Shown here piece after piece: positions 2,746 to 56,123 of a stretch of DNA of 64,000 nucleotides. Source of the stretch: Bacillota bacterium (GTDB lineage Bacteria; Bacillota; Clostridia; Ch29); NCBI GenBank assembly GCA_040766775.1, contig JAXGPT010000003.1:30098-94097 (forward strand). Direction: 5' to 3'. The notes under the pieces are model-generated. The model did no database searches. It saw nothing but the letters and a program-made list of their open reading frames with translations, and was not told the origin of the DNA. Each line of letters begins with the position of its first letter. The stretch's first letter is position 1. The translations under genes and the position numbers were made by a program.

Positions 2746-3936
2746 ATGGGAAAGGCTAAATATGAGAGGACCAAACCGCATGTAAACGTAGGAACCATTG
2801 GGCACATAGACCATGGCAAGACGACGCTGACGGCGGCAATAACCTATGTACTGTCGAAGAGGGGCGGTGCGATGGCAACGGCATACGACCAGATAGACAA
2901 AGCTCCGGAGGAGAAGGAAAGGGGCATAACCATATCCACGTCCCACGTTGAATATGAAACGGAAAAGAGGCACTATGCGCACGTAGACTGTCCCGGACAC
3001 GCGGACTATGTAAAGAACATGATAACGGGTGCGGCGCAGATGGACGGAGCAATAATAGTGGTATCGGCGGCGGACGGTCCCATGCCGCAGACCAGGGAGC
3101 ATATACTGCTGGCGCGTCAGGTAAACGTACCCTACATAGTGGTATTCCTGAACAAGTGCGACATGGTGGACGACGAGGAGCTAATAGAGCTGGTAGAGAT
3201 GGAAGTAAGGGACCTTTTGAACGAATACAACTTCCCCGGGGACGAAGTGCCGGTAATAAGGGGTTCTGCGCTTAAGGCACTGGAGGACCCGGACAGCGAA
3301 TGGGCGGACGCAATAATTGAGCTTATGGACGCTGTTGACGAGTACATTCCGACGCCGGAGCGGGACGTTGACAAGCCTTTCTTAATGCCTGTGGAGGACG
3401 TATTCAGCATAACGGGCCGAGGCACCGTGGCAACGGGCAGGGTAGAAAGGGGAACCCTGAGGGTACAGGACCAGGTAGAGATAGTGGGTCTTACCGAAGA
3501 GTCCAGGACGGTAGTGGTAACGGGAGTGGAGATGTTCAGGAAGCTGCTTGACCAGGCGGTGGCAGGAGACAACATAGGAGCGCTACTTAGAGGTGTACAG
3601 CGTAACGAGATAGAGAGGGGCCAGGTACTGGCCAAGCCGGGTTCAATAAAGCCGCACACGCATTTTGAAGCGGAAGTGTATGTATTGACGAAGGAAGAGG
3701 GCGGCAGGCACACCCCGTTTTTCAACGGATACCGTCCGCAGTTTTATTTCAGGACAACCGACGTAACCGGCACGATAGCTTTGCCGGAGGGAGTGGAGAT
3801 GTGCATGCCCGGTGACAACATCACCATGACCATAAAGCTGATAACCCCTATAGCGATAGAAGAGGGTATCCGATTTGCTATAAGGGAAGGCGGCAGGACA
3901 GTAGGAGCAGGGGTAGTCTCCAAGGTACTGGAGTAA
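2746..3936 (+). CDS. tuf: translation elongation factor Tu
   Basis: Internal ATG at 2746 after AGGAGAACAAAGGA gives [27 protein letters not shown]. The 20 extra codons of the tracked ORF (2686) are rejected. Confidence 0.97.
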
Positions 3937-3960
3937 GACAAGGGGACGGTTCTCGTGTCT
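3936..3960 (+). repeat. conserved-loop hairpin family copy (stem AGACA/TGTCT, loop AGGGGACGGTTCTCG)
   Basis: Starts on the last base of the tuf stop codon. The loop core GGGGACGGTTCT is shared with copies at 28600, 35620, 53667, 55963 and 56098. No U-tract follows. Confidence 0.7.
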
Positions 3961-3978
3961 GTAAATGGGAAGTGGGAA

Positions 3979-4018
3979 GTGAGACGAGGGAAGTGGGTTT
4001 TCACTTCGCATGTCTCAC
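3979..4018 (+). other. nested hairpin in tuf-rpsJ spacer (GTGAGAC...GTCTCAC enclosing GAAGTG...CACTTC)
   Basis: Complementary arms read directly, preceded by three GGGAAGTG direct repeats (3967-3995). Probably a str-operon 3' structure, but no U-tract follows. Confidence 0.5.
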
Positions 4019-4054
4019 ATCTCACCTCTCAAATAGCTATTGATAATTTTTGCT

Positions 4055-4063
4055 TGTTATAAT
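4055..4063 (+). promoter_or_regulatory. candidate extended -10 promoter (TGtTATAAT) for the S10 operon
   Basis: TGTTATAAT lies about 210 nt upstream of rpsJ. The -35 is weak (TAGCTA at 18-nt spacing). Confidence 0.35.
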
Positions 4064-4274
4064 AAAATAAAATAGTTGCAGCAAGCAAGCGATGATATGG
4101 AAGGTTGCCGGAATTTGCCGGGAAATTTCCAAGGAGTATGTCCACATCTAGAATGGGGCGACTTTGGTTTTGTATGCACTTATGTTTAAAAAAAACTTCA
4201 AAACGCCTGGATGAGTGTATATGAGACCGGGTTGCGCGTAAACAAAAACGTGCGATTTTAAGGAGGTAAATTTG

Positions 4275-4583
4275 ATGGCGAAACAAAAAATCAGGATAAG
4301 ACTGAAGGCCTTTGACCATTCGGCCCTTGACCAGTCCGCAGCCAAAATAGTGGATACTGCGAAAAAAACAGGCGCCAAGGTATCGGGACCCATACCGCTA
4401 CCCACCGAGAGGGATGTTGTAACCATACTTCGGGCCCCCCATAAGTACAAGGATTCAAGGGAACAGTTCGAGATAAGGACTCACAAAAGGCTTATAGACA
4501 TTCACAATCCAAATCCCAAAACGGTGGATGCGCTTATGCGGCTTGACCTGCCCGCCGGTGTGGATATAGAGATTAAACTGTAG
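4275..4583 (+). CDS. rpsJ: 30S ribosomal protein S10
   Basis: [15 protein letters not shown]...[12 protein letters not shown], with ATG 8 nt after AAGGAGG. Confidence 0.96.
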
Positions 4584-4643
4584 GATATTATGATTGTTTC
4601 CTAAAAAGGGGATAATCCGCTAATAATATTGGAGGTGCAACAG

Positions 4644-5273
4644 ATGGTGAAAGGTATTCTGGGAAGGAAACTGGGCATGACACAGGTGTTCGACGAGAAC
4701 GGAAATATAATACCGGTTACCGTAATAAAGGCGGGACCCGTAAAGGTGGTACAGAAAAAGACGATTGAAAGTGACGGGTACTCGGCAATACAGGTGGGGT
4801 TTGAAGATGTAAAACCCGCGAAAGTTAACAAGCCCGTAAAGGGTCATTTTGACAAGGGCGGGGTTGAGTACAAGAGGGTATTAAGGGAGTTTAGGATAGA
4901 AAATCCCGAGGACTACGAAGTAGGCCAGGAAATAAAGGTTGATACGTTCAAGGAAGGCGAAAAAGTTGACGTGGCAGGGACTTCTAAAGGTAAGGGTTTC
5001 CAGGGCGTTATAAAAAGGTGGGGCCAAGGTCGCGGTCCCATGACCCATGGCTCAAAGTACCACAGGGGAGTAGGCTCAATGGGCGGGACCAGTTCCCCGT
5101 CAAGAACCTTTAAGGGCAAAAGGATGCCGGGAAGAATGGGCGGCGAAAGGGTTACAGTACAGAACCTTGAAGTGGTAAAGGTGGACCCGGAGCACAATCT
5201 TATGCTTTTAAAGGGCGCGGTACCGGGACCCAAGGGCGGCTTACTGGTCATAAGGAATTCTGTCAAAGCATAA
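4644..5273 (+). CDS. rplC: 50S ribosomal protein L3
   Basis: [16 protein letters not shown], with ATG after GGAGGTG. The tracked ORF starts 15 nt upstream. Confidence 0.96.
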
Positions 5274-7313
5274 GAAGGCTTGTAGAAAGAGCAGCGGGTA
5301 TGATGCTGGCGGAAACCGGAAAAAACTTTTAGAAATTCGCTTTTCGGCGTATGAGGTGTATGTTCGGTGAAGGCATCACTAAACTAAACCTTAAATCTAA
5401 CTTAATAGATAAATATACAACGGACCTAATACGGAGGGCGGAATAGGCAATGGCCAGTTTATTCAGCTATCATGTCGGTTTCTCCTCCTGGTTGGTAAAG
5501 CTGGTTGGTCTTTAGCAGATAAAGATCAATCGACCAGTTTTCGGGCAGTAAGCGCAAGGGCACGTTTGTGTGCATATTGTTTAGGCTCCGCTTTCTTTAG
5601 GGCATAGTACTGCGCAAAGATAGGGTCGTGCATCCTGACACTGTCAGCCGCCTCAATGAGGTAGTACCGTAAGAAGCGATTACCTGAACGGATAAGCCGT
5701 GTGTTGTTGGCAGTAAAGTTACCAGATTTTGCGTTGCGTCCAGGCCAGGCTCTGCGAACTTGGCCAGCTGCTTATGGCTGTCAAACTGGTTAATATCGCC
5801 TATTTCGGCCAGTATACCAGAGAAAATATCAATAATACCCGCACAGAATTCAGGGTCTGAGCAGTGAATAGTATCCAGATGGTCCTCTATGGCTTTTTTC
5901 AGGGACTTAAGCTGCTCCCGGAGCGTCCTTATGACCCGTATGCTGGATGCCATAGCTAGATTAACGGAGTCGCGCCATGGCCTTTGGCAAGCGATAAGAA
6001 GACCGTGCTGCTTTCAAGTTCTTTGGCTACAGCCTGTGGGTCATCGAATCGAGCTTTACCATGCTGGATCAGGAACCAGGTAAGTTTGTCCAAAGAAGCT
6101 TCAGCCAAGGCTTTGCGCATTCAAACTCTTCCATGACTGCCAAAGAAGTAGCAGATAGCTTGTTGTCAAAAACGAGGGTGTAATCACTGCATTTTAGGTA
6201 TAAGTTAGTCATAAGGAAGTTGCTTTCCCGTACTCAGGGCTCGTATAAGATGGTATCTGGCCCGTGTTAGCCTCTGCAAGCGTTGGCTATGGGCTCACTC
6301 CATGTGAATGGTGGGGCAGATGCCCGGCCATAAGCTTGGATGCTATGTACCAGGCATCGACCCTGTCATTTTTAGGAGCATCGAGGAAATGAGCCTTTTT
6401 AAACTCCTTGATGAGGCTAAAGTTAAACAAGTATACGTTAACATCTTCGCAGCCGAAGACCAGATGATGTTGTAGGTACATGGCAGCATGGGTAGAGTAA
6501 CAACCGGTATGTTCAAGCCTGAAGAGTATTTGATCAAAGCCAGTGCTTTTGCACTAGCTGGCTGATACGCTGTTTAAGCCTAGCGATCCCGGGTCGATTG
6601 TTAAGCACAATAAACCTGGATAAGGGTCTTTTCCTCATCATCGTTTGATAGGCAACACCACATTATCCCTGCTGCTTAAGTACTCGACAAATAAAGGGTT
6701 GGGCATCTTAATCACCTCCTTTGCGGAATGGATAAGATGTCTACAGTCCTGGGGATGTCCCTGGGAAACCCATGAACGACAGCCTTGCGAGCTATAGGAA
6801 TACATACCAAGTACCCTTCGATGCACATGCTTCCTCTGCTTGCAGGAAGGAAGAGAAGCCGGGAAACAGCCAGCGTGTAGGTCTATATCATGGGGCCAGG
6901 GAACACTCTTCGCGGGAAGACACCCGGAATATCGGGGCAACGGGAGGAGACGGAACATTCCCTTGGTAGACACCTTTGGCTATATTTTCCCAAAGACATC
7001 GCAGTACTGCAAACCCTAAATTAAAGAAAGATAGTGTAAAAGAGAAGAAATTACATTGGGCTGTAGATATGCGCTGCAGCTGAAGGTTCTGATGGATAAC
7101 TTCAGAGTTACCCACAGACCCCACGAGCTTTGACAACGCCAAAGCGTTGACCACATATCCACAAGCCCCGACTACGACTAATAATGTTGTTTTAAAAAAT
7201 ATAAAGATAGATTTGAAGATAACATTATTAAGTCAATAAATATCAATATGAGTAACCTCCGAATTGGAATTTACATCCAAATTGGCTGCTGCTCATAGTA
7301 TAAGGAGGAAAGG
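5274..7313. mobile_element. IS110-family insertion filling the rplC-rplD spacer (ends not resolved)
   Basis: A spacer that is normally tens of nt is 2.04 kb here. It contains an antisense DEDD/IS110-type transposase gene plus about 600 nt of non-coding sequence 5' of that gene and about 185 nt 3' of it. Confidence 0.6.
5459..6706 (-). pseudogene. IS110 family transposase, multiple frameshifts
   Basis: Fragments read MPNPLFV..SSRDNVV (N-terminus), KNDRVDAWYIASKL (DEDD domain) and AEIGDINQFDSHKQLAKFA...NNTRLIRSGNRFLRYYLIEAADSVRMHDPIFAQYY (Transposase_20 domain). They lie in three frames over about 1.25 kb. Confidence 0.8.
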
Positions 7314-7946
7314 TTGGTGCTTCTAAAGTAGTGCAGTTTATAATACAGAAGGAAAGCAGGTAGGGGAAATAGACCTTTAAGGATGAGATTTTTGGTGCCG
7401 AGGTAACCAGCCCTGCTGCATCAGGCTGTGCAGGTATACCTAGCCAACCAAAGACAGGGTACCCATTCTGCAAAGACCCGGGCGGAAGTAAGGGGCGGCG
7501 GCAGAAAGCCCTGGAGGCAAAAAGGCACAGGCAGGGCAAGACACGGCAGCATCCGCTCGCCGCAGTGGACGGGAGGGGGAGTGGTTTTTGCCCCTAAACC
7601 CAGGGATTATTCACAAAAACTGTCCAAAAAAATGCGCAGGCAGGCCATGCTTTCGGCCCTCAGTTCAAAGGCGGCCAACAACGAGATTATGGTATTGGAC
7701 AGCCTTGTAATGGACCGGCCCAAGACCGCGTTTATTTCCGCCATGCTCAAGAATCTTAACATTGATAAAAAAGCATTGATAGTGGTCAAGGGCGGAGACG
7801 AGGTGGTAGCAAGGTCGGCAAGAAACATCCCCGGGGTAAAAACAACCTTTGCGGGAAGCCTTAACGTATATGACATATTGAAGTATGATACGTTTTTGAT
7901 AACCAGGGATGCGGTACAGGAAGTCGAGGAGGTGTACGGGAAATGA
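7314..7946 (+). pseudogene. rplD: 50S ribosomal protein L4, first ~35 codons frame-broken (probable assembly indels)
   Basis: The intact part 7428-7946 reads [37 protein letters not shown]. Upstream, AVYNTEGKQVGEIDL / KDEIFGAEV / LLHQAV lie in shifted frames after the RBS AAGGAGG (7302). Confidence 0.85.
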
Positions 7947-8233
7947 AGGCTCCCCAAGATATAGTTATAAGGCCTATTGTTACAGAGAGAAGCATGAGGG
8001 ACATGGAACAGAACAAGTACACCTTTGTGGTAGACAAAAAGGCTAACAAAATAGAAATAAAGAAGGCCGTGGAAGAGCTGTTCGATGTGAAGGTGGAAAG
8101 GGTAAATATTGTAAACTACATGGGCAAAATGAGAAGGATGGGCAGAAACATCGGTAGGAAGGCAAGCTGGAAAAAGGCCTTTGTGAAGCTTGCCGAGGGC
8201 AGCAAAAAAATAGAGTTCTTCGAGGGAATGTAA
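7943..8233 (+). CDS. rplW: 50S ribosomal protein L23
   Basis: 96 aa with overlapping ATGA coupling to rpl[11 protein letters not shown]...[20 protein letters not shown]. Confidence 0.95.
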
Positions 8234-8252
8234 ATGTAAGGAGGGAAACGTA

Positions 8253-9083
8253 ATGGCGGTTAAAAAATTCAGGCCTACCTCCCCGGGAGTACGACATATG
8301 ACCGTATTGGACTATTCTGGGATTACTACCGACAAACCGGAAAAATCCCTTGTGACCGATTTGAAAAAGTCCGGAGGGAGAAACGTACACGGCAGGATAA
8401 CTGTTCGTCACAGGGGAGGCGGACATAAAAGAAAATACAGGATTATAGACTTTAAGAGGGACAAGGATGGGGTACCGGCAAGAGTTGCCACCATCGAGTA
8501 TGACCCCAACAGGAGTGCGAATATTGCGCTTTTAAACTACGCTGACGGCGAAAAAAGATATATAATAGCGCCGTTGGGGCTGAACGTGGGCGACATCGTG
8601 GTATCCGGCGATAGTGTGGACATAAAACCGGGCAATGCCCTGCCCCTTTCCAGCATTCCGGTGGGTACCGTAATACACAACATTGAATTAAAACCCGGTA
8701 AGGGAGCCCAGCTGGTAAGGGCAGCCGGCAACGCGGCTCAGCTTATGGCGAAGGAAGGGGATTATGCGCAGATCAAACTTCCTTCCGGAGAGGTTAGAAT
8801 GGTTAGGCAGGAGTGTAGGGCGACGGTGGGACAGGTAGGTAACCTTGACCACGAGAATATCACCATAGGTAAGGCCGGCAGGAAGAGAAACCTTGGAATT
8901 AGGCCTACCGTCAGGGGTTCCGCCATGAACCCGGTTGACCACCCGCACGGCGGCGGTGAGGGTAAGGCCCCGGTGGGCAGGCCGACACCGGTTACACCGT
9001 GGGGCAAACCCACAATCGGATACAAGACAAGAAAGAAGAACAAGGACAGCGACAAGTTTATCGTTAAGCGTCGTAAGAAGTAA
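8253..9083 (+). CDS. rplB: 50S ribosomal protein L2
   Basis: 276 aa: [17 protein letters not shown]...[15 protein letters not shown]...HPHGGGEG. Confidence 0.97.
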
Positions 9084-9108
9084 CAAGAGAAGGGAGGAAA
9101 TATTTTTC

Positions 9109-9392
9109 ATGGGAAGGTCACTGAAGAAAGGACCCTATGTCCATTCTAAACTTTTAAAGAGGATAGAAGAGATGAACAAAAAGAACGAGAAAAAGGTCCT
9201 GAAGACCTGGTCGAGGGCATCTACCATCTTCCCGCAAATGGTGGGTCATACCATAGCGGTGCACGATGGGAGAAAACATGTCCCCGTTTATATAACCGAA
9301 GAAATGGTGGGTCACAAATTAGGCGAATTTGCGCCGACCAGAACCTTTAGGGGGCACGGTTCCCATACTGAAAGGTCAACGGCACCAAGTAG
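9109..9392 (+). pseudogene. rpsS: 30S ribosomal protein S19, stop codon lost by a 1-nt deletion near 9385
   Basis: [16 protein letters not shown]...[17 protein letters not shown] is S19. The frame then runs on into rplV. Restoring one base gives ..STAPK-TAG at 9390-9392, followed by the rplV RBS. Confidence 0.85.
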
Positions 9393-9412
9393 AGGGAAGG
9401 AGTGGTTTAACG

Positions 9413-9749
9413 ATGGAAGCAAAAGCCTGCGCAAGATATATTAGAATATCACCCCGAAAGGTCGAGGTTGTCTTGGACCAGGTGAGGGTAAAAGCATAGA
9501 TGAAGCTTTGGCCATACTATAGGCGGTAGCGGCGCCCCCATAAGGGCGCAACAACCGAGAAATTGATACAATCGGCGGCGGCCAACGCGGAAAACAATCA
9601 CGATATGGTAAGGGATAACCTGTACGTTGCACAAATTTATGCCAACCAGGGGCCGACCATGAAGAGGTACAAGGCCAGGGCCCGGGCAGGGCAAACCTGA
9701 TACGCAAAAGAAGTACCCATATATCCGCAGTTTTCGCGAAAAACAGTAA
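9413..9749 (+). pseudogene. rplV: 50S ribosomal protein L22, several frameshifts
   Basis: [23 protein letters not shown], then a premature TAG at 9497. The GGG run at 9486-9488 should be GGGG to read RGKSIDEALAIL. Later pieces AANAENNHDM, LYVAQIYANQGPTMKRYKARARG and THISAV are in other frames. Confidence 0.85.
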
Positions 9750-9764
9750 GAAGGAGGGAAAGCC

Positions 9765-10412
9765 ATAATAAAAAAAGTCAATCCCCACGGCCCGTGGTCG
9801 GGATAATAAAAGACTGAGTTCAAAGTGGTATTCGGGTAAAAGGGATTTTTCAAATCTTTTGATAGAAGATAAGAAAATAAGAAAATACGTAAAGAATAAG
9901 TTCTATACTCTCCTGGGGTTTCCAAAGTGGAAATCGAGCGGGCAGCAAACCGGGTTGGGCGTTGCGTACGGCCGCCAAGCCGGGAATGGCGGATAGGAAA
10001 AGGCGGCGCGGGAGTGGATGACCTTTAAGAAAGAACTGGAGGTCATGACGGGGAAAAAATGTATTCATCAATATAATAGAAATAAAGGCCCCGAACTGGA
10101 TGCACAGCTGGTTGCGGAAAACATCGCTTCCCAGCTTGAAAAAAGCGGTTTCCTTCAGAAGGGCCATGAAACAGCCATCCAGCGAACAATGCGTGCGGAG
10201 CCAAGGGTATCAAAACAATGGTGGCTGGAAGGTTGGGAGAAAGCAGAAATAGCCAGGAGCGAAAGATACAGCGAAGGCACCATACCGCTGCAGACGCTGG
10301 CGGCCGACATAGTGAGGAGCCTGCAGAGGCGGATACCACCTACGGAAAAATCGGGGTGAAGGTATGGATATACAAAGGGGAAATCCTGGGTAAAACCAAG
10401 AGCGAAAACTAG
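9765..10412 (+). pseudogene. rpsC: 30S ribosomal protein S3, at least 5 frameshifts, start codon not identifiable
   Basis: S3 peptides are scattered over three frames: [91 protein letters not shown]. Confidence 0.85.
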
Positions 10413-10439
10413 GGACTTGTAAGGGAGGAGGAAGGCCAA

Positions 10440-10874
10440 ATGTTGATACCCAAAAGGGTCAAGCGCCGAAAGGTTCAAAGGGGCAGAATGAAAGGAAAAG
10501 CAGCCCGAGGCAACGCAATATCATACGGTCAATACGGTCTGCAGGCTATCGAACCGGGATGGATTACTTCAAACCAGATTGAGGCTGCAAGGGTAGCCAT
10601 GACCAGGTATATAAAAAGAGGTGGAAAGGTCTGGATAAAAATATTTCCCGACAAACCCGTTACACAAAAACCCGCTGAAACCAGGATGGGCTCGGGTAAA
10701 GGGTCGCCGGAATACTGGGTGGCGGTGGTTAAGCCCGGAAGAGTCATGTTTGAAATATCCGGCGTAAGCGAAGATGTAGCCAGGGAAGCAATGCGCCTTG
10801 CCATGCATAAACTGCCTATCAAATGTAAATTTGTAAAACGCGATGAAGTGGGTGGTGAAGCAAATGAAAGCTAA
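10440..10874 (+). CDS. rplP: 50S ribosomal protein L16
   Basis: 144 aa: [19 protein letters not shown]...[21 protein letters not shown]. Confidence 0.97.
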
Positions 10875-11067
10875 AGAGGTTAGGGAAATGACCGAACAGG
10901 AATTGGAAAAAAAGGCCAAGGAGCTTAAGGGAGAACTTTTCAACCTCAGGTTTCAACTTGCTACGGGACAGTTGGATAATCCCATGAGAATAAAACAGGT
11001 GAGAAAATCCATTGCAAGGATAAAAACCGTTTTAAGGGAAAGGGAACTTAAGAAGGTTAAAGCGTAA
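10864..11067 (+). CDS. rpmC: 50S ribosomal protein L29
   Basis: Internal ATG gives [37 protein letters not shown]. It overlaps the rplP end. Confidence 0.93.
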
Positions 11068-11097
11068 CAGCTTTTCAGGGAAGGAGGAAATGGGTCT

Positions 11098-11753: not shown

Positions 11754-11770
11754 CGAAGGAGGTGGCTGTT

Positions 11771-20995: not shown

Positions 20996-21040
20996 CCGGT
21001 CCCTGTGGGAGAAAGAGGGACGCAGGGACAGGGACAAACA

Positions 21041-21057
21041 GGACAGGTCTCCTGTCC
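21041..21057 (+). repeat. GC-rich hairpin GGACAGG-tct-CCTGTCC preceded by GGGAC(A) direct repeats
   Basis: AGGGACGCAGGGACAGGGACAAACAGGACAGGTCTCCTGTCCC follows rplQ. It is a degenerate relative of the GGGGACGGTTCT hairpin family. No U-tract follows. Confidence 0.5.
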
Positions 21058-21131
21058 CGGCTGGCGGGCCGGCGGAATACCTCCGCTTTAAACAGAGTGG
21101 TGTCCTTAATTCATGTTTAAGAGGGGTTAAA

Positions 21132-25361: not shown

Positions 25362-25401
25362 ACAGACCGTCGGAGGACAGCGTTCCAGGCGGTCTGTTTT
25401 A
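25362..25401 (+). terminator. intrinsic terminator after rpsI
   Basis: ACAGACCG...CGGTCTGT stem followed by TTTT. The 20-nt loop contains GGAGGACAGCGTTCC, related to the GGGGACGGTTCT loop. Confidence 0.75.
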
Positions 25402-25812: not shown

Positions 25813-27094
<1,282 letters not shown>

Positions 27095-27157: not shown

Positions 27158-27179
27158 TTAGAAAATGAATACAAGCCTT

Positions 27180-27286
27180 CCTTTAAGATGGTCCGGAGAG
27201 GCCGGCAAGGAAAAGAGTTGAGAGTGCTTCTAAAACTGGCACTTGTGTGCAAAGACGCTTCCTGTCGGTGACGGGAAGCTTTTTTA
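27180..27286 (+). promoter_or_regulatory. PyrR-binding attenuator (binding loop plus terminator)
   Basis: CUUUAAGAUGGUCCGGAGAGGCCGGCAAGG matches the PyrR loop consensus UUUAA..GUCCAGAGAGGCU..AAGG. The terminator GCTTCCTGTC-GGT-GACGGGAAGC plus TTTTTT lies at 27257-27286, immediately before a uracil permease gene. Confidence 0.8.
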
Positions 27287-27311
27287 GTATAAAATTTAAG
27301 GAGTGTGGATT

Positions 27312-28589: not shown

Positions 28590-28599
28590 TGGGACAAGT

Positions 28600-28632
28600 G
28601 GGACAAGGGACGGTTCTTTGTCCCTTTTTTTT
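28600..28632 (+). terminator. intrinsic terminator after pyrP; member of the conserved-loop hairpin family
   Basis: GGGACAA-GGGACGGTTCT-TTGTCCC followed by T8. Preceded by two more GGGACAAG direct repeats. Confidence 0.85.
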
Positions 28633-35603: not shown

Positions 35604-35619
35604 GGTACAACCCTCCTTT

Positions 35620-35646
35620 GAAGCAAGGGGACGGTTCTTTTGCTTC
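35620..35646 (+). repeat. conserved-loop hairpin family copy (stem GAAGCAA/TTGCTTC, loop GGGGACGGTTCTT)
   Basis: Read on the plus strand. It lies in the 5' UTR of the minus-strand response-regulator gene, abutting its RBS. Confidence 0.7.
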
Positions 35647-35761
35647 CTTCCGCAGTTTCTTGACCCAGGGCCAACAGTGCGGTTCTCGCGGTTTTTTGTT
35701 AAGTATATTGTAACATAGTTTACCACAAGCAATTAACGTTTGGACAATTATTCCATTCCAT

Positions 35762-47234: not shown

Positions 47235-47269
47235 TAGGAAATATACCCGGCAGTTTTACCGGAGGGCTG

Positions 47270-47309
47270 AAAAGCAGCCCACCGCCAAAAAGGGGTGGGC
47301 TGCTTTTTT
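47270..47309. terminator. strong (bidirectional-type) intrinsic terminator
   Basis: AAAAGCAGCCCACC-gccaaaaagg-GGTGGGCTGCTTTT(TT), a 14-bp stem flanked by an A-run and a T-run. Confidence 0.9.
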
Positions 47310-47311
47310 AC

Positions 47312-49195
47312 GTTCGCCCGACATGAAGCAGTAACTAGGCGGTGAAAGTCCGCTATGGGCTCAGTAGTGGGAACGCCATTAGCTAAACAGCAAAGGTGTT
47401 CACCGTGAGGTGAAATCTGGAGAAGCTGCAGGCAAAGTCCCGCACCGACGGACAGGAACTGCATACAAGGCATACGTGGAACGGACGAGTTTGCATAACA
47501 AAACGAAGTCCAACACTACCCGAATTCCGGTGTAAATGCGGCGGTGACATGGGATGAAAGTTACTGTTCTTAATCGGGGAGGTCTGGCAGGTACGTCAGG
47601 CAGGGAATGAGATTTTCCCATGATAACCCATGCAGCGATGTATGGGCTGAGCTGTCAGAAGTCAGCAGAGAGTCATAGTACCATACCGGATATATACGGA
47701 ATGGGAAGGACCGAACGGAAGGATGTTTTGGTATTGTGAAGCACACTACGAAATGCGATGAGCGCAGCCAACTTCATACTGAAGACTACCTGTGTGAGGA
47801 TAGGGTGGAACCCGAAAGAAGCATGGGAGTGCAGAGTATTTCGTTTACGTCTTCAAAGACCAAAACGATGGCAATGAGTATGCCGAGCTTGCTTGATAAA
47901 ATACTTGACCGAGAACAACATGAACAAGGCATACAAGAGGGTTAAGTCAAACAAAGGCAGCCATGGAATTGATGGAATGACAGTAGATGAACTTCTACAG
48001 TTTCTGAAGAAAATGGTGAGCAAATCAGGCAGTGTATCCGGGAGGAGTACTTACAAGCTAAAACCTATGCGGCGGATAGAATGCCAAAGCCGGGCGGCAA
48101 AAGACTACTTGGCATACCAACAGTAGTGGACAGAGTAGTGCAACAGGCAATAGCCCAGTATTAAGCCCAATCTTTGAAAGCAGTTCTCGATTGAGCTATG
48201 AGTTCAGTAGGAAGGGACGCAAAACAGGCGGTATTGAAATGCAAGGAATACATAAACGAGCTACGACTGGGCTGTGGATATTGACCTTGCGAAATGCTGA
48301 TACCGTAAGCCGACAAGTCAGTGGTACAATCCATAAAACCGTTAAGGATAGGGGAGTAATATCACTTATCCGCAAATTCCTTCAATCAGGAGTAATGATA
48401 AATGGAGTAGTGGTGGAAACGGAAGAGGGCTGTCCGCAGGGTAGTACGCCAAGCCCGCTGCTATCCAATATCATGCTGAATGAACTGGATAAGGAACTAG
48501 AAAGAAGGGGGCTTAAATTCTGCCGGTACGCCGATGATGTAAACATATACGTCAGAAGCAGGAAGCCAGCAGAAAAAGTAATGGTAGTGTTACACGGTTA
48601 TCGAAGACGATTTAAAACTTAAGGTAAACCGTGAAAAGTACTGTTGATAGGTAGCAGCGGCTGAAATTTTAGGTTTCTCCTTTTACCGTAAAGATAGTGG
48701 TATAGGGATAAGGGTGCACCCAAGGTCACTAGCGAAGTTTAAATCAAGCTAAAGGAGATAACCTCAGGAGTAATGTTATGAGCATGGAATACAGGATATT
48801 TAAACTGAACCAGAGCATTACCGGCTGGGTAAACTACTTTAGCCTGGCGGACATGAAAGCAATAGCTGCTAAACTTGACGGGTGGATAAGGCGCAGGATA
48901 AGAATGTGCTACTGGAAGCAGTGGAAGAAAGTTAGTACAAGCACAGGAACCTTGTAAGGTTAGGTATAGACAACTACAAGGCATGGCAGTATGCCAACAC
49001 GAGGAAAAGCTACTGGCATACAGCCAATAGCTTTATCGCAGGCAAATCCATCACCAATGAATACCTGAAAAGTTTGGGTCTAAAGTCAGTATCCGAAAGA
49101 TATTCATTGATCCCATTAATATCTTTTCGAACCGCCGTATGCCGGACGGCGCATACGGTGGTGTGAGAGAACAGGGGTTAATCATCCCCTCCTAC
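47312..49195 (+). mobile_element. group II intron, bacterial class C (IIC), with decayed RT/maturase ORF
   Basis: The 5' end is GUUCGCCCGACAUG... Conserved blocks GAGUUUGCAUAACAAAACGAAGUCC, GGGGAGGUCUGG and AGAAGUCAGCAGAGAGUCAUAGUACC are present. Domain V is GAACCGCCGUAUGCCGGACGGCGCAUACGGUGGUG (49131-49164). These resemble the Oceanobacillus IIC intron as I recall it. The intron begins 2 nt after a terminator U-tract, the typical IIC target. Confidence 0.85.
47868..49110 (+). pseudogene. group II intron reverse transcriptase/maturase, many frameshifts
   Basis: LLDKIL..NMNKAYKRVKSNKGSHGIDGMTVDEL, LLGIPTVVDRVVQQAIAQ, GCPQGSTPSPLLSNIMLNELDKELERRGLKFCRYADDVNIYV (YADD) and ITGWVNYF occur in several frames. 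Confidence 0.85.
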
Positions 49196-49207
49196 TCCGA
49201 TTCCAGT

Positions 49208-50620
49208 TTAAAGACCTCCCTTCGGGTCCACCTTGACGTCCCTGGGGGTAAGCCATTGCCCCGTTTCCCGGCAAAGGGCATACCTTTTGCCAGTTCCCCC
49301 GACCGGGACATGGTCTTTATCTTTTCAAGGCATTCTATAAGCCGGTCTATATCCTTTTATTATAGGTAGCAAGGCTTACCCTTACCATGCCGGGATACGC
49401 TTAAGTCTCCGGCTCTTTTCTTGTGTATAAGCCGGGACAGCTGCTGTGGATTAAGTCCCAACAGGTGCAGCATGTAGGGCTGGGCGCAAAGCACCCGTTT
49501 CTAACGGCAATACCCCCTCCCCGGGGTAAGCGCGGCGTGCCGAGTAGTGGGGTAGCCGTCAGGTTGGTAATAACCCCCACCCTGTTCCCCGGTCCGGTTG
49601 GGATCGGTTTCGCCGTATACCGCAGAGCCCTTTGACTTCCCCCAGCCTTTTAAAGGGCATAGGAAGTAAACGGTTCTTTCATGGTTTTCAATGTTACGCA
49701 TGCCTTGCCTTTGCAAATATTGAATGGCGGATGCCAGTGCCACTGCCCCCACAACGTTGGGGGAGCCGAGCTCTTCCTGTCCGGAAGCCCGGCCATTCCA
49801 CCGTTTCCGGGGTAACCTTGTGTATTAACGGTGCCGCCGCCGGTGTACTCGGGAGCGCCCGTTAAAGGTCCTTTTTGGTCCTATAAGCCCCCGGTTCCAA
49901 AGGAGCGTACATTTTATGGGCGGAAAAAACGAGGTAATCAATATGTTCCGGGTGGTCGTCCGGGTTTATATCCACCGGTGAATGGGGCACAAGCTGGGCA
50001 CCGTCTACCAAGGATGGGTACCCCTGCGCGGTGGGCAATGGCAGCGGTACTTCCCACATCGTTCTTGAAACCGGTTACGTTGGAGGCCCCCGAGACGCTT
50101 ACAAAGTTTTTATCCTGCGCCCGTACCGCAGTTTGGTTTCCAGGTCATCCAGGTCAAGGGCGCCCCGCCGGTCAGCGCCGCCGGCGTACACCGCTGCCGC
50201 CTTGGACCTCCGGGGAAGGTCGTTGGAATGATGTTCCATCATGGTTGTGAGCACCAAATCCCCTTGGCGAGCCCCCAATCAGTAGGAGACCTTGTTTACC
50301 CGCTTCGGTGGCGTTTTTCACGAAAATTACGCAGTTGCTGGAAAAGTCCGCCTTTACAAAGCTGCCTACCACTTCGTGGGCTTCGTCGTATACATGGGTG
50401 GAGACTTGGGACTTGAAACCGGTGCCCCTGTGTACGCTGGAATACCAGTCCATGAACTCCAATTACGCTTGTCCAGTACCGGGCGCAGTACCGGGGTGCT
50501 GGCGGCATTGTCCAGGTTCACGTAAGATGCATATCCCTCCCCCGGCAAAGAGAACCTTCTTGTCTACCCACAATATCCCTGCGGAACCTTGCATGGTTAA
50601 ACCCTTCCCTTTTAAAACAT
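49208..50620 (-). pseudogene. aminotransferase class V-fold PLP enzyme (cysteine desulfurase-like), many frameshifts
   Basis: Minus-strand fragments: YVNLDNAASTPVLRPVLDK, EFMDWYSSVHRGTGFKSQVSTHVYDEAHEVVGSFV, VDGAQLVPHSPVDINPDDHPEHIDYLVFSAHKMYAP, GAVALASAIQYL. Confidence 0.8.
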
Positions 50621-50891
50621 GTTACATTCTCCTTTAAAAAATAAGCGCTAATACCATTATATGAACGGGGCGGAGTTTTGATTCCGCAGTGCCGCGGCAA
50701 AAATTCGCCGGCGGCGCGCCTTGCAAAAGTGCCCCCCCCAAAGCACAGGGGTTGCAGGCAGGATTGTAGTTACATAATATAATAAGGAGGGCAGTTTTTA
50801 ATGCCTATGGGATTTCAACCAATTGAAAAGCTATATTCGGTGTGATAATATTTAACCGTATTAGGCTGGCATACTAAGGACAGGAGATTGT

Positions 50892-52224
50892 ATGGGTAAA
50901 CTATTCGGAACCGACGGTGTAAGGGGAATAGCAAACGAGGAACTGACCAGCGACCTTGCATTCAAGCTTGCCCGGGCGGGAGCCGCCGTACTGAGCAGCG
51001 GGTAAAAGGTAAAGTTTGTACTGGGAACGGATACGCGCCTTTCTTCGGACATGCTGGAAAGCGCGATGGTCGCCGGGCTGTGTTCGGCGGGCAGCGATGC
51101 GGTGCTGGTGGGCGTGGTTCCAACACCGGCGGTGGTATACCTGATAAGGCACCTTGGCGCCGACGGGGTATTGTGATATCCGCTTCCATAATCCTGCCCA
51201 GTACAACGGGATAAAATTTTTCGACCGCCGCGGCTACAAGCTGGATGACCATTTGGAAGAGCCCAGTGGAAAAATTGTGCTGGAGGGTGCCGACGGGTTG
51301 TCGTGCACCGGCGTGAACTGGGCAGGAAAATAAACGAAACAAAGGGAGTAAAGTACTACGCGGACTCTCAAGGGCACGGTATCGGGAAATTTCGAAGGCA
51401 TGAGTGAAGCCGTTGACTGTGCCAACGGGGCGGCTTTTAAAGTGGCTCCCTTGGTACTGGAGGAACTGAAGACGAAGGTGAGTGTAATTAACGACTGCCC
51501 CGACGGGCTAAACATAAACGTGGAATGCGGGTCCACCCACCCGGAAGGATTGGCTTCCTTGTAGCCTTGAAGGAAAAGGGGGAAATCATGGACAGGGCTT
51601 GCCGCGACGGCGATGCCGACCGGCTAATCGCAGTGGACCACAGGGGCGAGATAATAGACGGTGACTATATAATGGCAGTCTGTGCCCAGCGGCAAGAGCC
51701 CGGAAACTTTCAAAGGATACCGTGGCAGCCACGGTGATGTCCAACCTGGGACTGCACCGGGCATTGGAGAAAATTGGCTGCGGGGTGGAGGAAACCAAGG
51801 TCGGGGACAAGTACGTGCTGCAGAGGATGATGGAGAAGGGATACAGCGCGGCGGCGACGATCGGGGCGTAATATTCCTGGACCTAAACACCACCGAGGAC
51901 AGCCTGACGGCACTCCAGCTTCTGGAGACCATTAAGTATTTCGGCAAAGCCTTTCCGGAACTTTGCAGCACCATGCAAAAATATCCCCAGGTCTGGTCAA
52001 CGCAAGGGTAGAAGTACGGACAGGAAGCTTACCGACAGGACCCGGTTATTTGCGCCGAGATTGAAAGGATACAAGACCAATTGAAAGGCAGCAGCTTGAG
52101 ATGCTTATAAGACCTTCAGGAACCGAGCCGCTGGTAAGGATTATGCTGGAGGGTAAGGATACGAGTAAAGCCCAGGCAGTATGCGGAAAACCTTGCAAAG
52201 CTGATTGAAACCCGCCTATCGTAG
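50892..52224 (+). pseudogene. glmM: phosphoglucosamine mutase, many frameshifts (probable assembly indels)
   Basis: [19 protein letters not shown]..., [39 protein letters not shown] and LIRPSGTEPLVRIMLEG are spread over three frames. 1333 nt against ~1347 expected. Confidence 0.88.
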
Positions 52225-52230
52225 AGACAG

Positions 52231-52249
52231 GGGACAGTTTCTTTGTCCC
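52231..52249 (+). repeat. hairpin GGGACA-gtttctt-TGTCCC (conserved-loop family relative)
   Basis: ACAGGGGACAGTTTCTTTGTCCC starts 7 nt after the glmM stop. Paralogous to 53770-53786. Confidence 0.6.
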
Positions 52250-52301
52250 GTTTGTACGTTTCGCGAAGGAGGCGATGGATGGAGATAGTCCCAAGGGTAT
52301 A

Positions 52302-52535
52302 AAGCGCCAGAACTCCTTAATCAGTAGGCACTTGCGCGGGTTGTGCGTCAAAACGCGGGTGTGCTAAAAGCGCCTATCGATTGCGTTTTACGTGCAGCGC
52401 GCCGCAGGCGCGTGGGGGAGTTGACGAAGGTCAGGGCTTATCGAGGCTTCATGGATAGGCCCGCGGTATCCTGCTGCTACCGTAAAGGCTCTACAAATCC
52501 ACCGGGCGACCGGCAGGACAAAGTCCGGGCAGTCA
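52302..52535 (+). ncRNA. glmS ribozyme: glmS ribozyme, copy 1
   Basis: AAGCGCCAGAACUCC...GGAGUUGACGAAGGUCAGGGCUUAUCGAGG...CCCGCGGUAUC...CUACCGUAAAGG...GGCAGGACAAAGUCCGGGCAG. It shares the core blocks of the glmS ribozyme and of copy 2, but has differences in the GGCGGAUG block. Confidence 0.8.
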
Positions 52536-52564
52536 ACAATACTGCTAAAAGGAGAAACACCGAT

Positions 52565-53669
52565 ATGAATAAAGCGGATAAAAGGGTTATCCCCATTATA
52601 TGCTAAAGGAGATATACGAACAGCCGGAAGTGATAGAAAACACCCTGAAGGACAGGACAATACCGGGAGCGAAGACATAAATCTAGCGATATAAAACTAA
52701 CCCAAAGCGACCTTGACGGGGTGCACAGAATGGTTGTGATTGCATGGCACGTCCTATCACGCGGGGCTTGCCGGCAAATACCTCATTGAAAAGTTCGCCG
52801 GGATACCGGTGGGGGGGGAAATAGCCTCAAGGTTCGGTACCGGGACCCGGCGGTGGATAAAAACAACCTGATAATAGCAATAAACCAGTCCAGGAAACCG
52901 CCGACACCTTGGATACAATGAGAAGGCAAAGCAAGTGCCCGCATCATTGCCATATCAAACGTGGCGGGAAGCACCATACCCAGGAGGCGGACCACTCCCT
53001 CTATACCTGTGCAGAGCCGGAATTTCGATAGCCTCCACCAAGGCCTTACACGTCATGATTAATTACCCTTTATTTACTTACGTTGAAACTGAAGCCCAAT
53101 TAAAGGGCAGGACGGGATTGACCGAAACATACCGGCAGAAGCTGGAGGCAGCACAGGCAGCCTGCCGGAAGAGCGCGAAAATTAACTGGACTGTTCGGGA
53201 GAAATGAAAGAGCTGGTAAGACTCGGCATAAGGATATGGAAAAGATTATATACCTGGGTAAAATCCTTGATTACGCATTAGTACGCCAGGGGTCATTGAA
53301 GCTGAAAAGAGACGTGTTATATACATTCGGTAACTTACCCGGCGGGCGAGTTCAGGCACCCGAGCATATGGCGCTGGTGAAGAAAGGGCTTTTTGTATTT
53401 TCCTTGCCACCCAGGATGCACTGCTAGGCAAGTCTCTGGTAAATTTGCGGGAAATAAAGGACGGGGAAGCCTGCGTGGTAGCCCTGAGCAGGGCTGACCG
53501 GGAAGTCGGCGAAGCGGCAGACAGGGTAATATATGTTCCGGAAGTACCGGATGAATTCACCTCGGCGCCGGCGGTAAATACCCCTGCGGTTGTTTTCTTC
53601 ATGGCGGCTTGTGAGGACACGATATTTGACAAGCCGCGAAGCCTGGTTAAAAGCGTCACCGATTCATAA
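52565..53669 (+). pseudogene. glutaminase-less GlmS homologue (two SIS isomerase domains only; GlmD/NagB-II-like), many frameshifts
   Basis: ATG after GGAG, then MNKADK + [54 protein letters not shown]-like, GSLKLK, and ADRVIYVPEVPDEF...KPRSLVKSVTDS-TAA. Colinear with residues ~245-609 of the downstream glmS. No MCGIVG glutaminase domain. Confidence 0.75.
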
Positions 53670-53693
53670 TCATAGGGACGGTTCTTTTGATTA
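53667..53693 (+). repeat. conserved-loop hairpin family copy (stem TAATCA/TGATTA, loop TAGGGACGGTTCTTT)
   Basis: Starts on the stop codon of the glmS-like ORF. Confidence 0.7.
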
Positions 53694-53748
53694 CATTTCA
53701 TTGAATTTATTATAAAGCCGAATATTGAATAACAAAGTTGGACACTGT

Positions 53749-53788
53749 ATGGGACGAGGGATGGGGTAAGGGACGTTCTTTGTCCCAT
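53749..53788 (+). repeat. hairpin ATGGGAC...GTCCCAT containing AGGGACGTTCTT (family relative)
   Basis: The inner alternative is GGGAC-gttcttt-GTCCC at 53770-53786. The flanks are paralogous to 52231-52260. Confidence 0.55.
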
Positions 53789-53871
53789 TTGTCAATTATG
53801 TAAAAGGGGTGGTGCGGTAAAGAATATGCAATTGGGAAAGGAGAGGAGGTGACAGCAGATATTAAAAAAAC

Positions 53872-54105
53872 AAGCGCCAGAACTCCTTAATCAATGAACG
53901 CTTGCGGGTGTGCGCCAAAATGCGGGCGTGCTGAAGCGCCTGTCAACCGCGCATTGCGTGCAGCGCGCTGCGGGCATTTGATAGCGGAGTTGACGAGGGT
54001 CGGGGCTTATCGAAGTTTTCGGCGGATGGCCCCGCGGTATGCTGCTACCGTAAAGGCCTTACAAATCCGCCGGGCGACCGGCGGGACAAAGTAGACCGGG
54101 CAGCA
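53872..54105 (+). ncRNA. glmS ribozyme: glmS ribozyme, copy 2
   Basis: AAGCGCCAGAACUCC...GGAGUUGACGAGGGUCGGGGCUUAUCGAAGUUUUCGGCGGAUGGCCCCGCGGUAUGCUGCUACCGUAAAGG...AAAUCCGCCGGGCGACCGGCGGGACAAAG, about 30 nt upstream of the glmS ATG. Confidence 0.88.
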
Positions 54106-54136
54106 ACGAAAAATCCCTAAAGGAGAATACAAGACT

Positions 54137-55966
54137 ATGTGCGGTATAGTTGGATATATAGGCAGCAAAGACGCAACACCCATCCTGATTGAAGGCTTAA
54201 GAAGGCTTGAATACAGGGGATACGATTCGGCCGGGGTAGCCGTTTATAACGAAGGCAGGGTCCAGGTGAAAAAGTACAAGGGCAGGCTGGATGTGCTGGA
54301 GGGCCGGATTAGGGAAAACCCCATCCTGGGAAACTTAGGGATCGGGCATACCCGGTGGGCCACCCACGGCGAACCGTCGGATGTGAATTCCCATCCCCAG
54401 ACAAGTTCCGGCGGGGATATAGCCATTGTACACAATGGCATAATAGAAAACTTTATGCCCCTTAGGGAATGGTTGTGCTATGAAGGGTACGAATTCCGGT
54501 CGGATACCGATACCGAGGTGGTAGCCCACCTCATAGACCATTTCTATGAAGGGGACCTTGTGAAGGCGGTTATAGAGTGCATGAAAAGGTTGAAGGGGTC
54601 CTTCGCGCTGGGGATAATAAGCTCTGACGAGCCGGATAAACTGGTGGCGGTAAGAAAGGACAGCCCGCTTATAGTAGGCATCGGCAGCGGCGAAAACTTC
54701 ATAGCGTCGGACATCCCCGCCATACTAAACCATACCAAGCGGGTTTACCTGCTGAACGATATGGAAATAGCGGTTTTGAGCAAAGAGGGCGTGAAAATAC
54801 TGGACCATAATGGTGCGCCGGTACAGAAGGAAGTGTTTGAAGTTACCTGGGACGTGGCCGCTGCCGAAAAGGGGGGCTATCCCCATTTCATGCTGAAGGA
54901 AATGTTCGAGCAGCCCACCGCCCTTAGGCAAACCCTCAAGTCCCGGCTTATATCCGAGAACGACGACATAATACTAGACATGATAAGGATTAACAAAGAG
55001 GACCTTGACAGGGTGGACAAAATAAACATCGTGGCCTGCGGCACCGCGTACCATGCGGGGGTTGTGGGAAAACATCTTATAGAAAGGCTGGCGAGGATTC
55101 CCGTCGAGACGGACATCGCCTCCGAGTTCCGCTACAGGGACCCGATACTTGATAAAAACAGCCTTGTAATGGTTATAAGCCAGTCGGGAGAAACCGCCGA
55201 CACCCTCGCGGCCATGAGGGAAGCCAAGCGGAAAGGGGCCAGGGTTATTGCCGTTACCAACGTGGTGGGAAGTACCGTGTCCAGGGAAGCCGACGACCTA
55301 TTGTATACCTGGGCGGGGCCGGAAATTGCGGTAGCCTCCACGAAGGCCTATACGACGCAGCTTTTGGCCATGTCGCTTATAGCCCTGAAACTTGCCAGCA
55401 TAAAGGGTGAAATAGACGAGGAGCTTTACAGCAGTATGAGGGAGGCCATATACAGGCTCCCGGAACAGGCGCAGCAGGTTGCTGGAAAAGGCGGAGGAGA
55501 TAAAGGCCCTTTCGGAGGAATACAAGGACGTTGACAAGGTGTTTTTCATAGGCCGGTCGCTGGACCATGCTGTGGCCATGGAAGGGTCGTTAAAGCTTAA
55601 GGAAATATCCTATATATTTTCCGAGGCCTATGCGGCCGGGGAACTTAAGCACGGCACCATAGCCCTTGTGGAGGACGGGACGCTGGTATTTGCCCTGGCC
55701 ACCCAGGACAGGCTGTTCGAGAAGTCGGTCAGCAACATGAAGGAGGTAAAAGCCAGGGGAGCCCAAGTAATAGCCGTTGCCAAGGAGGGAAACAGGGAGG
55801 TTGAAAAGGTGGCGGACCGGGTCATATACATCCCGGATACGCTGGACCTTTTGACCCCGGTGCTGACGGTGATACCGCTGCAGCTTTTTGCCTACTATAT
55901 AGCGGTGGCCCGGGGCTGTGACGTTAGCAAGCCCAGAACCTAGCCAAAAGCGTCACCGTGGAGTAA
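54137..55966 (+). pseudogene. glmS: glutamine--fructose-6-phosphate aminotransferase, two compensating 1-nt indels near the 3' end (probable assembly errors)
   Basis: MCGIVGYIG...intact to ~55478. An extra T at 55479-55480 shifts the frame, which resumes as LEKAEEIKAL...(55479-55943). A missing A at 55937-55938 hides the C-terminus NLAKSVTVE-TAA (stop at 55964-55966). Total length is 1830 nt, i.e. 609 codons plus stop. Confidence 0.9.
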
Positions 55967-56000
55967 TCAAGGGTAATCTGGGGACAGTTCTCTTGATTAC
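55963..56000 (+). repeat. conserved-loop hairpin family copy (stem GTAATCAAG/CTTGATTAC, loop contains GGGGACAGTTCT)
   Basis: Overlaps the glmS stop codon. 9-bp perfect stem. Confidence 0.7.
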
Positions 56001-56097
56001 TATTTGCATACTCGCGTATAGCAGTATATGTTGATTTAAGCCCATGAAATGTATGCAGGGGCAACCTGAGGTCTTTCACGGGCTTTTAATTACGGAA

Positions 56098-56123
56098 GTA
56101 ATTAGGACGGTTCCGTTGATTAC
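56098..56123 (+). repeat. conserved-loop hairpin family copy (stem GTAAT/ATTAC, loop TAGGACGGTTCCGTTG)
   Basis: Third copy of the GTAAT(C/T)A...TGATTAC arm type. Lies 49 nt upstream of the RayT-like ORF. Confidence 0.6.

Follow-up and report, generated by a model that had tools for sequence, protein, structure and literature searches.

In this work, we analyzed a family of short hairpins dispersed over a 64,000-nucleotide stretch of DNA from a Clostridia member of the Bacillota (assembly GCA_040766775.1, contig JAXGPT010000003.1, positions 30,098 to 94,097 of the forward strand), hereafter the window. Eight intergenic hairpins, all on the + strand, present the same loop, (G)GGGACRGTTCT, and the last of them stands ahead of a gene for a Y1 (HUH) tyrosine transposase of the RAYT/TIRYT type (a RAYT is a REP-associated tyrosine transposase, and a REP is a repetitive extragenic palindrome). 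Taken together, our results make it probable that these hairpins are a REP-like family, that is, short, non-autonomous and dispersed palindromic DNA repeats that constitute the cognate sequence of this transposase. The hairpin family is widespread in Bacillota.

The core is clearly enriched in the window. Allowing up to one mismatch, the 12-mer GGGGACRGTTCT occurs six times, against 0.46 expected from 100 dinucleotide shuffles of the window, none of which reached six, and the exact 11-mer GGGACRGTTCT is present at five places, each of them intergenic and on the + strand. We also built a covariance model (R1) from 42 distinct family members, four of them window copies, two from the contig of a sister strain and the rest from other genomes, and searched the window with it without filters. 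Its top eight matches, all on the + strand, are the eight intergenic sites at which a preliminary description of this DNA had reported a common core as the loop of a hairpin: 35618-35648, 53665-53695, 3933-3963 and 28597-28627, which belong to the training set (E <= 2e-9 each), and 55972-56001 (E 0.004), 52221-52252 (E 0.077), 53748-53789 (E 0.13) and 56097-56124 (E 0.46). The three "degenerate relatives" proposed in the same description fared worse, as the model, run without filters on the window, found no match at 25362-25397 or 35676-35695 and gave a non-significant E = 5.8 at 21022-21061. This last site (+ strand, after rplQ) is, with low confidence, a possible relic: it lacks the core, and a tight hairpin, GGACAGG-TCT-CCTGTCC, stands behind GGGAC-type left-arm repeats. 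The Rfam scan returned no family at any hairpin, either at gathering thresholds or at E <= 10, in line with the earlier remark that the motif was not recognized as a named one; a tRNA/tmRNA scan gave no match and, therefore, no tRNA-derived origin is indicated.

What the family members share is the loop. In the alignment of the 42 distinct hairpins, the sole invariant columns are those of the loop G-GGACGGTTC, and this invariant loop, (G)GGGACGGTTCT, with a total length of 10-13 nt, is carried by a stem that varies by species or subfamily yet remains complementary. Paired cells across the 42 hairpins amount to 80.7%, versus 55% in shuffles and 35-53% in slid-partner controls, a fraction inflated because only hairpins with 5 bp or more of perfect stem were picked, a choice that leaves stem diversity unaffected. 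Double-sided stem changes number 118 versus 43 in shuffles (none of 500 shuffles reached the observed value), and each of the stem pairs 4-8 is at least 95% paired and shows 11-22 double-sided changes. The constant loop on a covarying stem that had been proposed is thus borne out, but the accompanying claim of a different stem at every locus was overstated: GGGACA/TGTCCC is found at three sites of the window and TAATCA/TGATTA at three, and the arms within one genome are mostly fixed per subfamily, with few subfamilies, as in REP families. Stem mismatches on the core strand show no wobble bias (18 G.T versus 31 A.C; the count was limited to true stem positions, as the conserved G and T bordering the core mimic a G.T excess), and this lack of a wobble excess is weak evidence against a constraint acting on RNA only.

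The transposase gene lies at 56173..56900 on the + strand (its end is approximate) and is interrupted by frameshifts and stops in the window, whereas same-species contigs have an uninterrupted 257-aa Y1_Tnp call right after glmS. The HUH (NHIH), FQDRY and tyrosine (YIHQNP) motifs are nevertheless readable in the window, and a 144-aa fragment from it scores 64.6 bits with NF047646 (REP_Tyr_transpos, REP-associated tyrosine transposase). Full-length homologues, of 248-257 aa, reach 78-90 bits with this model, whose cut-off is 80, and 17-24 bits with the IS200 model NF033573, whose cut-off is 55; the transposase also matches PF01797 (Y1_Tnp), and a weak C-terminal helix-turn-helix (HTH) is detected in homologues (HTH_23 and HTH_28 in P0050, just under the Pfam cut-offs).

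The association between hairpin and transposase was found from both directions. Among 80 loci picked on the hairpin pattern alone, tblastn identified transposase homologues in six; where upstream sequence is available, the gene and a hairpin are at most about 150 nt apart, and in two loci the nearest copies are downstream instead. Conversely, of six homologous genes from five species, chosen by protein alone, five are preceded by an exact core no more than 100 nt away. Between core and ATG the spacing is nearly constant: 68 nt for both genes of Alkaliphilus metalliredigens QYMF (locus L226), 65 nt in Petroclostridium (L227) and 68 nt in Anaerospora (L230); in the window and in the same-species contig L002 it is 68-69 nt. 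Besides, inverted copies follow the transposase stop codon in Petroclostridium, Anaerospora and Neobacillus (L228), and copies are present on both flanks of the gene in L159. Hairpin and RAYT/TIRYT-type gene are thus physically coupled in at least eight genomes. The preliminary description had set the hairpins apart from REPs or miniature inverted-repeat transposable elements (MITEs) with fixed arms, a distinction that does not hold in view of the fixed spacing to a Y1/HUH gene in several genera, the tandem and inverted arrays, and the arms largely fixed per subfamily within a genome. In L226, the two paralogous RAYT/TIRYT genes (10001-10756 and 20496 onward) are 10 kb apart, with near-identical upstream hairpin-promoter regions and with IS66 and IS4-type transposases in between; some genomes therefore have more than a single copy of the transposase gene.

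A scan with the pattern GGGACGGTTCTTTGTCCC covered one genome per species, and among the matches listed more than 107 genome stretches, nearly all from Clostridia/Bacillota, carry the core; they include Peptococcaceae, Desulfosporosinus, Natronincola, Lachnospiraceae, Thermacetogeniaceae, and rumen and digester metagenome-assembled genomes. The 80 loci picked by hairpin pattern (529 kb) contain 152 core 9-mers, and the same core occupies hairpin loops in Clostridia, Negativicutes and Bacilli. Loci chosen by the transposase alone also show it in loops, on other stems: AATAATA/TGATTA in Alkaliphilus metalliredigens, AAACCAA/TTGGTTT in Petroclostridium, GATACA/TGTATC in Anaerospora (Negativicutes) and, in Bacilli, GATGCATG/CATGCATC in Neobacillus (about 20 copies in 12.7 kb) and GGAAGC/GCTTCC in Salipaludibacillus (L234; 12 copies in 12.6 kb). 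Copy density accordingly ranges from 8 per 64 kb in the window to between 12 and about 20 per 12.6 kb in these two Bacilli. Viral-collection contigs, with stems GGAAC/GTTCC and GTTGTCAGG/CCTGACAAC, bear inverted doublets of the hairpin. As a negative control, the tuf loci of other taxa (354 kb) yielded three chance 9-mers, all coding, and no hairpin; these loci derive from metagenome relatives of EF-Tu (only 73-81% identical) and therefore serve as a control, not as a presence/absence comparison of the hairpin in the tuf-rpsJ spacer.

A comparison with eight same-species contigs, collected by exact-protein look-up and including GCA_900198705.1, revealed the anatomy of the element. The window is 98.4% identical to the sister contig L002 up to 47.2 kb and only 88-92% identical beyond, with more than 200 gap positions, a divergence that accounts for the frameshifted genes and for the four weak hairpins of this region. 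These four sites are damaged in this window alone, and in L001-L005 each of them is an intact GGACGGTTC core with a clean stem. In the sister strains, the left arm is present in tandem one to four times, followed by the core and by one inverted arm copy, and in three cases (glmM, the SIS gene and glmS) the host gene's stop codon falls inside the repeated unit. Of 130 distinct copies, 34 have the left arm duplicated in tandem and four the right arm; the duplicated unit begins 0-4 nt 5' of the hairpin foot, host stops included, and its other end is at most a few bases from the core start. The idea that these 5' direct repeats are iterons was dropped, as the repeated unit copies the local arm together with host stop codons. 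In L023 (~9000-9100) and L029 (~1780-1880), three head-to-tail repeats of a 39-bp unit, which comprises both arms and the core, stand beside an inverted copy; whole-element tandem arrays therefore exist besides the arm-only duplications.

The eight window copies, all on the + strand, illustrate this anatomy. The tuf copy, AGACA-AGGGGACGGTTCTCG-TGTCT (3936..3960; 37.3 bits), has as its first base the last base of the tuf stop and is located upstream of an S10-Clostridia leader (4084-4161, just below threshold, 120 nt past the hairpin). The pyrP copy (28591..28624) starts 1 nt past the pyrP stop and has a doubled left arm, TGGGACAAG TGGGACAAG GGACGGTTCT TTGTCCC, followed by a T-run. The glmM copy (52231..52249; E 0.077), which precedes the first glmS ribozyme, is degraded, and its sister-strain version reads ATAGGGACAGC ATAGGGACAGGT AGGGACAGG GGACGGTTCT TTGTCCC, with the stop codon within the repeated unit. 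The left arm of the SIS-gene copy, TAATCA-TAGGGACGGTTCTTT-TGATTA (53667..53693; 38.6 bits), contains the stop of the SIS-domain gene and is doubled in the sister strains. A further degraded copy (53770..53786; E 0.13) is found before the second glmS ribozyme; in the sister strains its core is intact, GGGTCAAG GGACGGTTCT TTGTCCC, behind about three further degenerate GGGAC-type left-arm repeats. Downstream of glmS, the copy at 55963..56000 (E 0.004; folding z -6.1) corresponds in sister strains to GTAATCAAGG GTAATCAAGG GGACGGTTCT CTTGATTAC, with the glmS stop inside the left arm. In the transposase-proximal copy (56098..56123), the core begins 68 nt ahead of the Y1 transposase ATG, and the right arm, TTGATT, doubles as the -35 element of TTGATT-16-TATAAT (56116-56143), the promoter-like site that ranks best in the region. 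The remaining copy, GAAGCAA-GGGGACGGTTCTT-TTGCTTC (35620..35646; 42.5 bits), is placed between the BON-domain and response-regulator genes, both on the - strand, and is unchanged in all eight sister contigs; its GAAGCA/TGCTTC stem also occurs on a hairpin in L189. It had been described as antisense ahead of the response-regulator gene and does lie, in that orientation, 18 nt upstream of the 229-aa call. The association of five copies with the stops of tuf, pyrP, glmM, the SIS gene and glmS is likewise confirmed, the hairpin or its left-arm repeat beginning at or within the stop codon in all of them except pyrP.

Over the whole collection, 111 of 140 copies (~79%) are intergenic, in comparison with a non-coding share of 15% according to a crude gene map based on open reading frames (ORFs). 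Copies are arranged as singlets, tandem copies or inverted doublets, and 33 of them are members of inverted pairs. Near-identical doublets were observed in a 6-kb prophage fragment, and one doublet is in frame within an ORF. The latter, at 2620-3342 of L053, a prophage-like contig from a viral collection, is an inverted doublet in a 240-aa ORF whose frame is kept, encoding ...GGRNVGDGSVVPHSWNEQNRPLVPPNRPLVPP..., and it is reminiscent of REP and RPE insertions, likewise in frame, that have been reported from other bacteria.

These data bear on the possibility that the hairpins are cis-acting RNA elements of 3' untranslated regions (stabilizers, processing sites or binding sites), in which a small RNA or an RNA-binding protein would read the loop and the transposase-side copy would be incidental. 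The core lies at a median of 25 nt from the stop codon upstream, a spacing that would suit such an element, as would the orientation of the singlets, 41 of which are co-oriented with the flanking genes versus 12 anti-oriented, and the presence of all eight window copies on the sense strand of mostly + strand genes. The loop also holds a GGA-containing AAGGGG that may resemble a Shine-Dalgarno sequence, a further feature in keeping with an RNA function. Nevertheless, this explanation seems unlikely, although individual copies may act in this way: the 12 anti-oriented singlets and the window copy at 35620, antisense to its neighbors, would not be expected from it, and neither would the common inverted doublets, the prophage and in-frame insertions, the fixed spacing upstream of transposase genes across genera, the lack of a wobble excess on the core strand or the lack of an Rfam match. 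The preliminary description had argued for a structured RNA recognized sequence-specifically by a protein or another RNA; of this, a protein that recognizes the loop by its sequence remains the best reading, while the structured RNA is disfavored by the occurrence in both orientations and by the other features just listed.

A second alternative considers the hairpins as the ends of autonomous IS200/IS605-like insertion sequences (IS) made of hairpin and tnpA, with the solo copies as MITE derivatives, rather than as a domesticated REP/RAYT system. The hairpin at a fixed distance 5' of the gene with an inverted or second copy 3' of it, the two gene copies within 10 kb in Alkaliphilus and the Y1_Tnp domain (PF01797), which is the IS200 transposase fold, would all be compatible with it. 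We find it improbable, however, given that the proteins are of ~250 aa with a C-terminal HTH and score 78-90 bits with NF047646 versus 17-24 with NF033573, that the gene occupies the same glmS-linked locus in several strains, and that the flanking copies are inverted. The two ends of IS608-type elements (IS200/IS605) share one orientation. Finally, ordinary intrinsic terminators sharing a loop by chance are a very improbable explanation, even though copies are sited directly after genes, the pyrP copy with its T8 is called terminator-like and many copies in digester metagenome-assembled genomes read aaaaaGGGACA...TGTCCCttttt, since 10-13 nt loops on weak stems terminate poorly, a terminator has no need of an invariant loop kept across three bacterial classes, copies also occur upstream of genes and in inverted pairs, and a T-run is missing from seven of the eight window copies (in the terminator scan of the window 28600-28624 alone passed, as anticipated) and was counted in only 12 of 130 distinct copies, a strict count that is an undercount where A/T tracts are absorbed into the stem. 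CsrA-type GGA loops, SinR GTTCTYT boxes, integron attC sites and CRISPR repeats were also considered and dropped on inspection, as they left the CGGTTCT half, the dispersed housekeeping contexts and the transposase linkage unaccounted for.

Several observations nonetheless weigh against a DNA repeat family that is cognate to the transposase. Only upstream copies flank the transposase gene of the window, and its downstream flank differs between strains. The Salipaludibacillus locus is copy-rich, yet none of its copies is within 300 nt of its 208-aa homologue. The hairpins are weak as single-stranded DNA, with folding energies of -2 to -9 kcal/mol and most z-scores between -1 and -2. The GTAG/GTGG head by which canonical REPs are defined is absent 5' of the stem in the 42-hairpin alignment. 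Furthermore, the prevalence of co-oriented singlets would be produced equally by selection at the transcript level, and local GC skew tracks gene direction in other loci, which makes the replication and transcription strands inseparable.

If the hairpins are indeed the cognate repeats of the transposase, a mechanism can be proposed by analogy with RAYT and IS200/IS605 enzymes. The HUH enzyme would bind the hairpin as single-stranded DNA, probably on the lagging-strand template, reading the loop sequence, and the stem would be required as structure only. The + strand of the window, which carries all eight copies, is G-rich (17,963 G versus 13,147 C) and would therefore correspond to the lagging-strand template, on which Y1 transposases act (PMC6006769). 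A nick would be made near the 5' foot of the hairpin or, alternatively, within the loop, as in rolling-circle origins. We hypothesize that limited strand-displacement synthesis would follow the nick and would be halted at the protein-bound loop before re-ligation, leaving the stuttered duplications of the 5' arm. Copies would survive where insertion is harmless, at the 3' ends of genes, and some may have been co-opted, the pyrP copy as a terminator and another as the -35 promoter element of the transposase gene. The window copies are probably immobile relics now, because the transposase gene is broken in this strain.

It is tempting to speculate further, although we hold this extended proposal only tentatively, that a RAYT/TIRYT clade of HUH enzymes across Bacilli, Clostridia and Negativicutes reads the invariant 12-nt loop GGGGACGGTTCT on any stable stem, much as a rolling-circle Rep protein would; that this loop is the missing cognate repeat of a transposase subclass said to have none, and the first REP-type system to be described in Firmicutes; and that the 5'-arm stutters are footprints of nicking, resynthesis and re-ligation. 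If so, these duplications would offer a sequence-level readout of the cut site and the seat of the enzyme. In the searchable literature on RAYT, TIRYT and Y1 transposases and Firmicutes we found no description of the hairpin family, the supplements of the two main surveys hold no Firmicutes member, and in full-text literature the core sequence retrieved unrelated primers only. Work on REPs and RAYTs has been almost confined to Proteobacteria, where REPs are species-specific and GTAG-tagged. Here, the recognized sequence is apparently a phylum-wide loop on stems that drift and compensate, so that the part read by the enzyme can be separated from the part that merely folds. The family would supply a cognate repeat for the large Y1 subclass 2.1/TIRYT, reported to lack REPs. 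In practical terms, its overlap with the stops of tuf, glmM and glmS and its nearness to glmS ribozymes will confuse the annotation of terminators, small RNAs and riboswitches in Firmicutes, and the motif can readily serve to locate such repeats in metagenome-assembled genomes from gut and digester.

Other features of the window deserve mention. Between 44900 and 56900, genes for 2-oxoacid:ferredoxin oxidoreductase subunits, a class V aminotransferase, glmM, the SIS protein, glmS (split at ~55500) and the Y1 transposase are frameshifted, and all genes broken in this region are intact in same-species contigs; it is either a low-quality stretch of the assembly or a decaying or recombined region. 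Within it, a group II intron at 47264-49202, absent from L002, was recognized by Rfam D1-D4 matches at 47399-47711 and a fragmented reverse-transcriptase ORF; it sits just past a terminator hairpin (47268-47310) downstream of the oxidoreductase gamma gene. Class C introns habitually insert after terminators. The two glmS ribozymes are in tandem gene units: the first (52292-52540), weak in the window at 46.6 bits, precedes a paralogue with only the SIS domain (~406 aa) and the second (53862-54107; 95 bits) precedes full-length glmS. Each of these units ends in a TAATCA-type hairpin, which suggests that ribozyme, SIS domain and hairpin were duplicated together as a segment. Upstream of the PyrR-binding site (27176-27288, just below threshold) that precedes pyrP, a 1.28-kb insertion at 25813-27094, not present in the same-species contigs L235-L237, contains IS30-like transposase fragments (HTH N-terminus at 25911-26114) and no long ORF, and is probably a decayed insertion sequence. 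An M-box riboswitch is located at 58426-58584.

Among known systems, the closest are REPtrons and TIRtrons. The REPtrons of Proteobacteria are formed by REP/BIME (REPIN) elements together with a RAYT (TnpA_REP). As in our family, these elements are high-copy short extragenic palindromes placed mostly just 3' of genes (Nunvar 2010, PMC2817692; Ton-Hoang 2012, PMC3333891; Corneloup 2021, PMC8266576), they occur as singlets, inverted dimers and clusters, they flank a Y1 HUH transposase gene, and they insert into genes, also in frame. Loop bases matter there too: in group 3 RAYTs, specific bases of the loop are essential for cleavage (Corneloup 2021, PMC8266576), and reading of a loop therefore has a precedent, though with loops of 3-4 nt. 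Canonical REPs, however, which flank RAYT genes, are GC-rich palindromes headed by GT(A/G)G (PMC2817692, PMC3333891), and their conserved part is the head and lower stem instead of a 10-13 nt loop. They are species-specific throughout, whereas one loop is kept here across three classes of a phylum; the tandem duplication of the left arm is found here and not in REPtrons; and our hosts are Firmicutes, of which two broad surveys list no families (PMC3733652, PMC6006769).

In TIRtrons, TIRYT genes are flanked by inverted repeats at a roughly constant distance, with a common GGGGWSAS, and some of these form repeat families (Di Nocera 2013, PMC3733652). They are equated by Quentin 2018 with the TnpA_Y1 subclass 2.1, of median length 238 aa, with a C-terminal HTH and the motifs NH[YF]H, FQ and Y[IV]HLNP, and no REP-like sequences were found for that subclass by automatic or manual search (PMC6006769). 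The two groups are probably the same, and our protein may belong to subclass 2.1 as judged from motifs and length: it reads NHIH, FQDRY and YIHQNP, and its homologues have 248-257 aa and a weak C-terminal HTH, where TIRYTs are long Y1 proteins (~240-250 aa) with a C-terminal HTH and the NH.H, FQ and Y[IV]H.NP motifs. A likeness may extend to the DNA, as TIRtron repeats keep a roughly constant distance from the gene and some of them are moderately abundant families present as dimers or clusters. When GGGGWSAS is compared with our core, GGGGACGG agrees at seven of eight positions and the variant GGGGACAG (window position 55980) at all eight, the comparison being with the published motif. In contrast, TIRtrons have been described as long terminal inverted repeats, mainly from Proteobacteria and Acidobacteria, while the motif here is in a hairpin loop.

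The left-end and right-end hairpins of IS608 and ISDra2 (IS200/IS605) resemble ours in being small, imperfect, single-stranded hairpins recognized by a Y1 HUH enzyme, partly through loop or extrahelical bases (PMC8266576). They differ in that the transposases have ~150 aa, the hairpins of the two ends point the same way, the elements are autonomous and multi-copy, and the cleavage site is set by a guide tetranucleotide. An invariant loop on a freely covarying stem, read by an HUH nuclease and preceded by direct repeats on the 5' side, is also the design of rolling-circle origins such as the nonanucleotide hairpin of geminiviruses and circoviruses, which our hairpins may resemble in how they work; in contrast to these, our repeats are chromosomal, dispersed and not replication origins, and their 5' repeats copy the local left arm and are thus unlikely to be specific protein-binding iterons. 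Altogether, the family departs from the REPs described so far in its long invariant loop, in a stem that differs by species and subfamily, and in the one-sided duplication of its arm.

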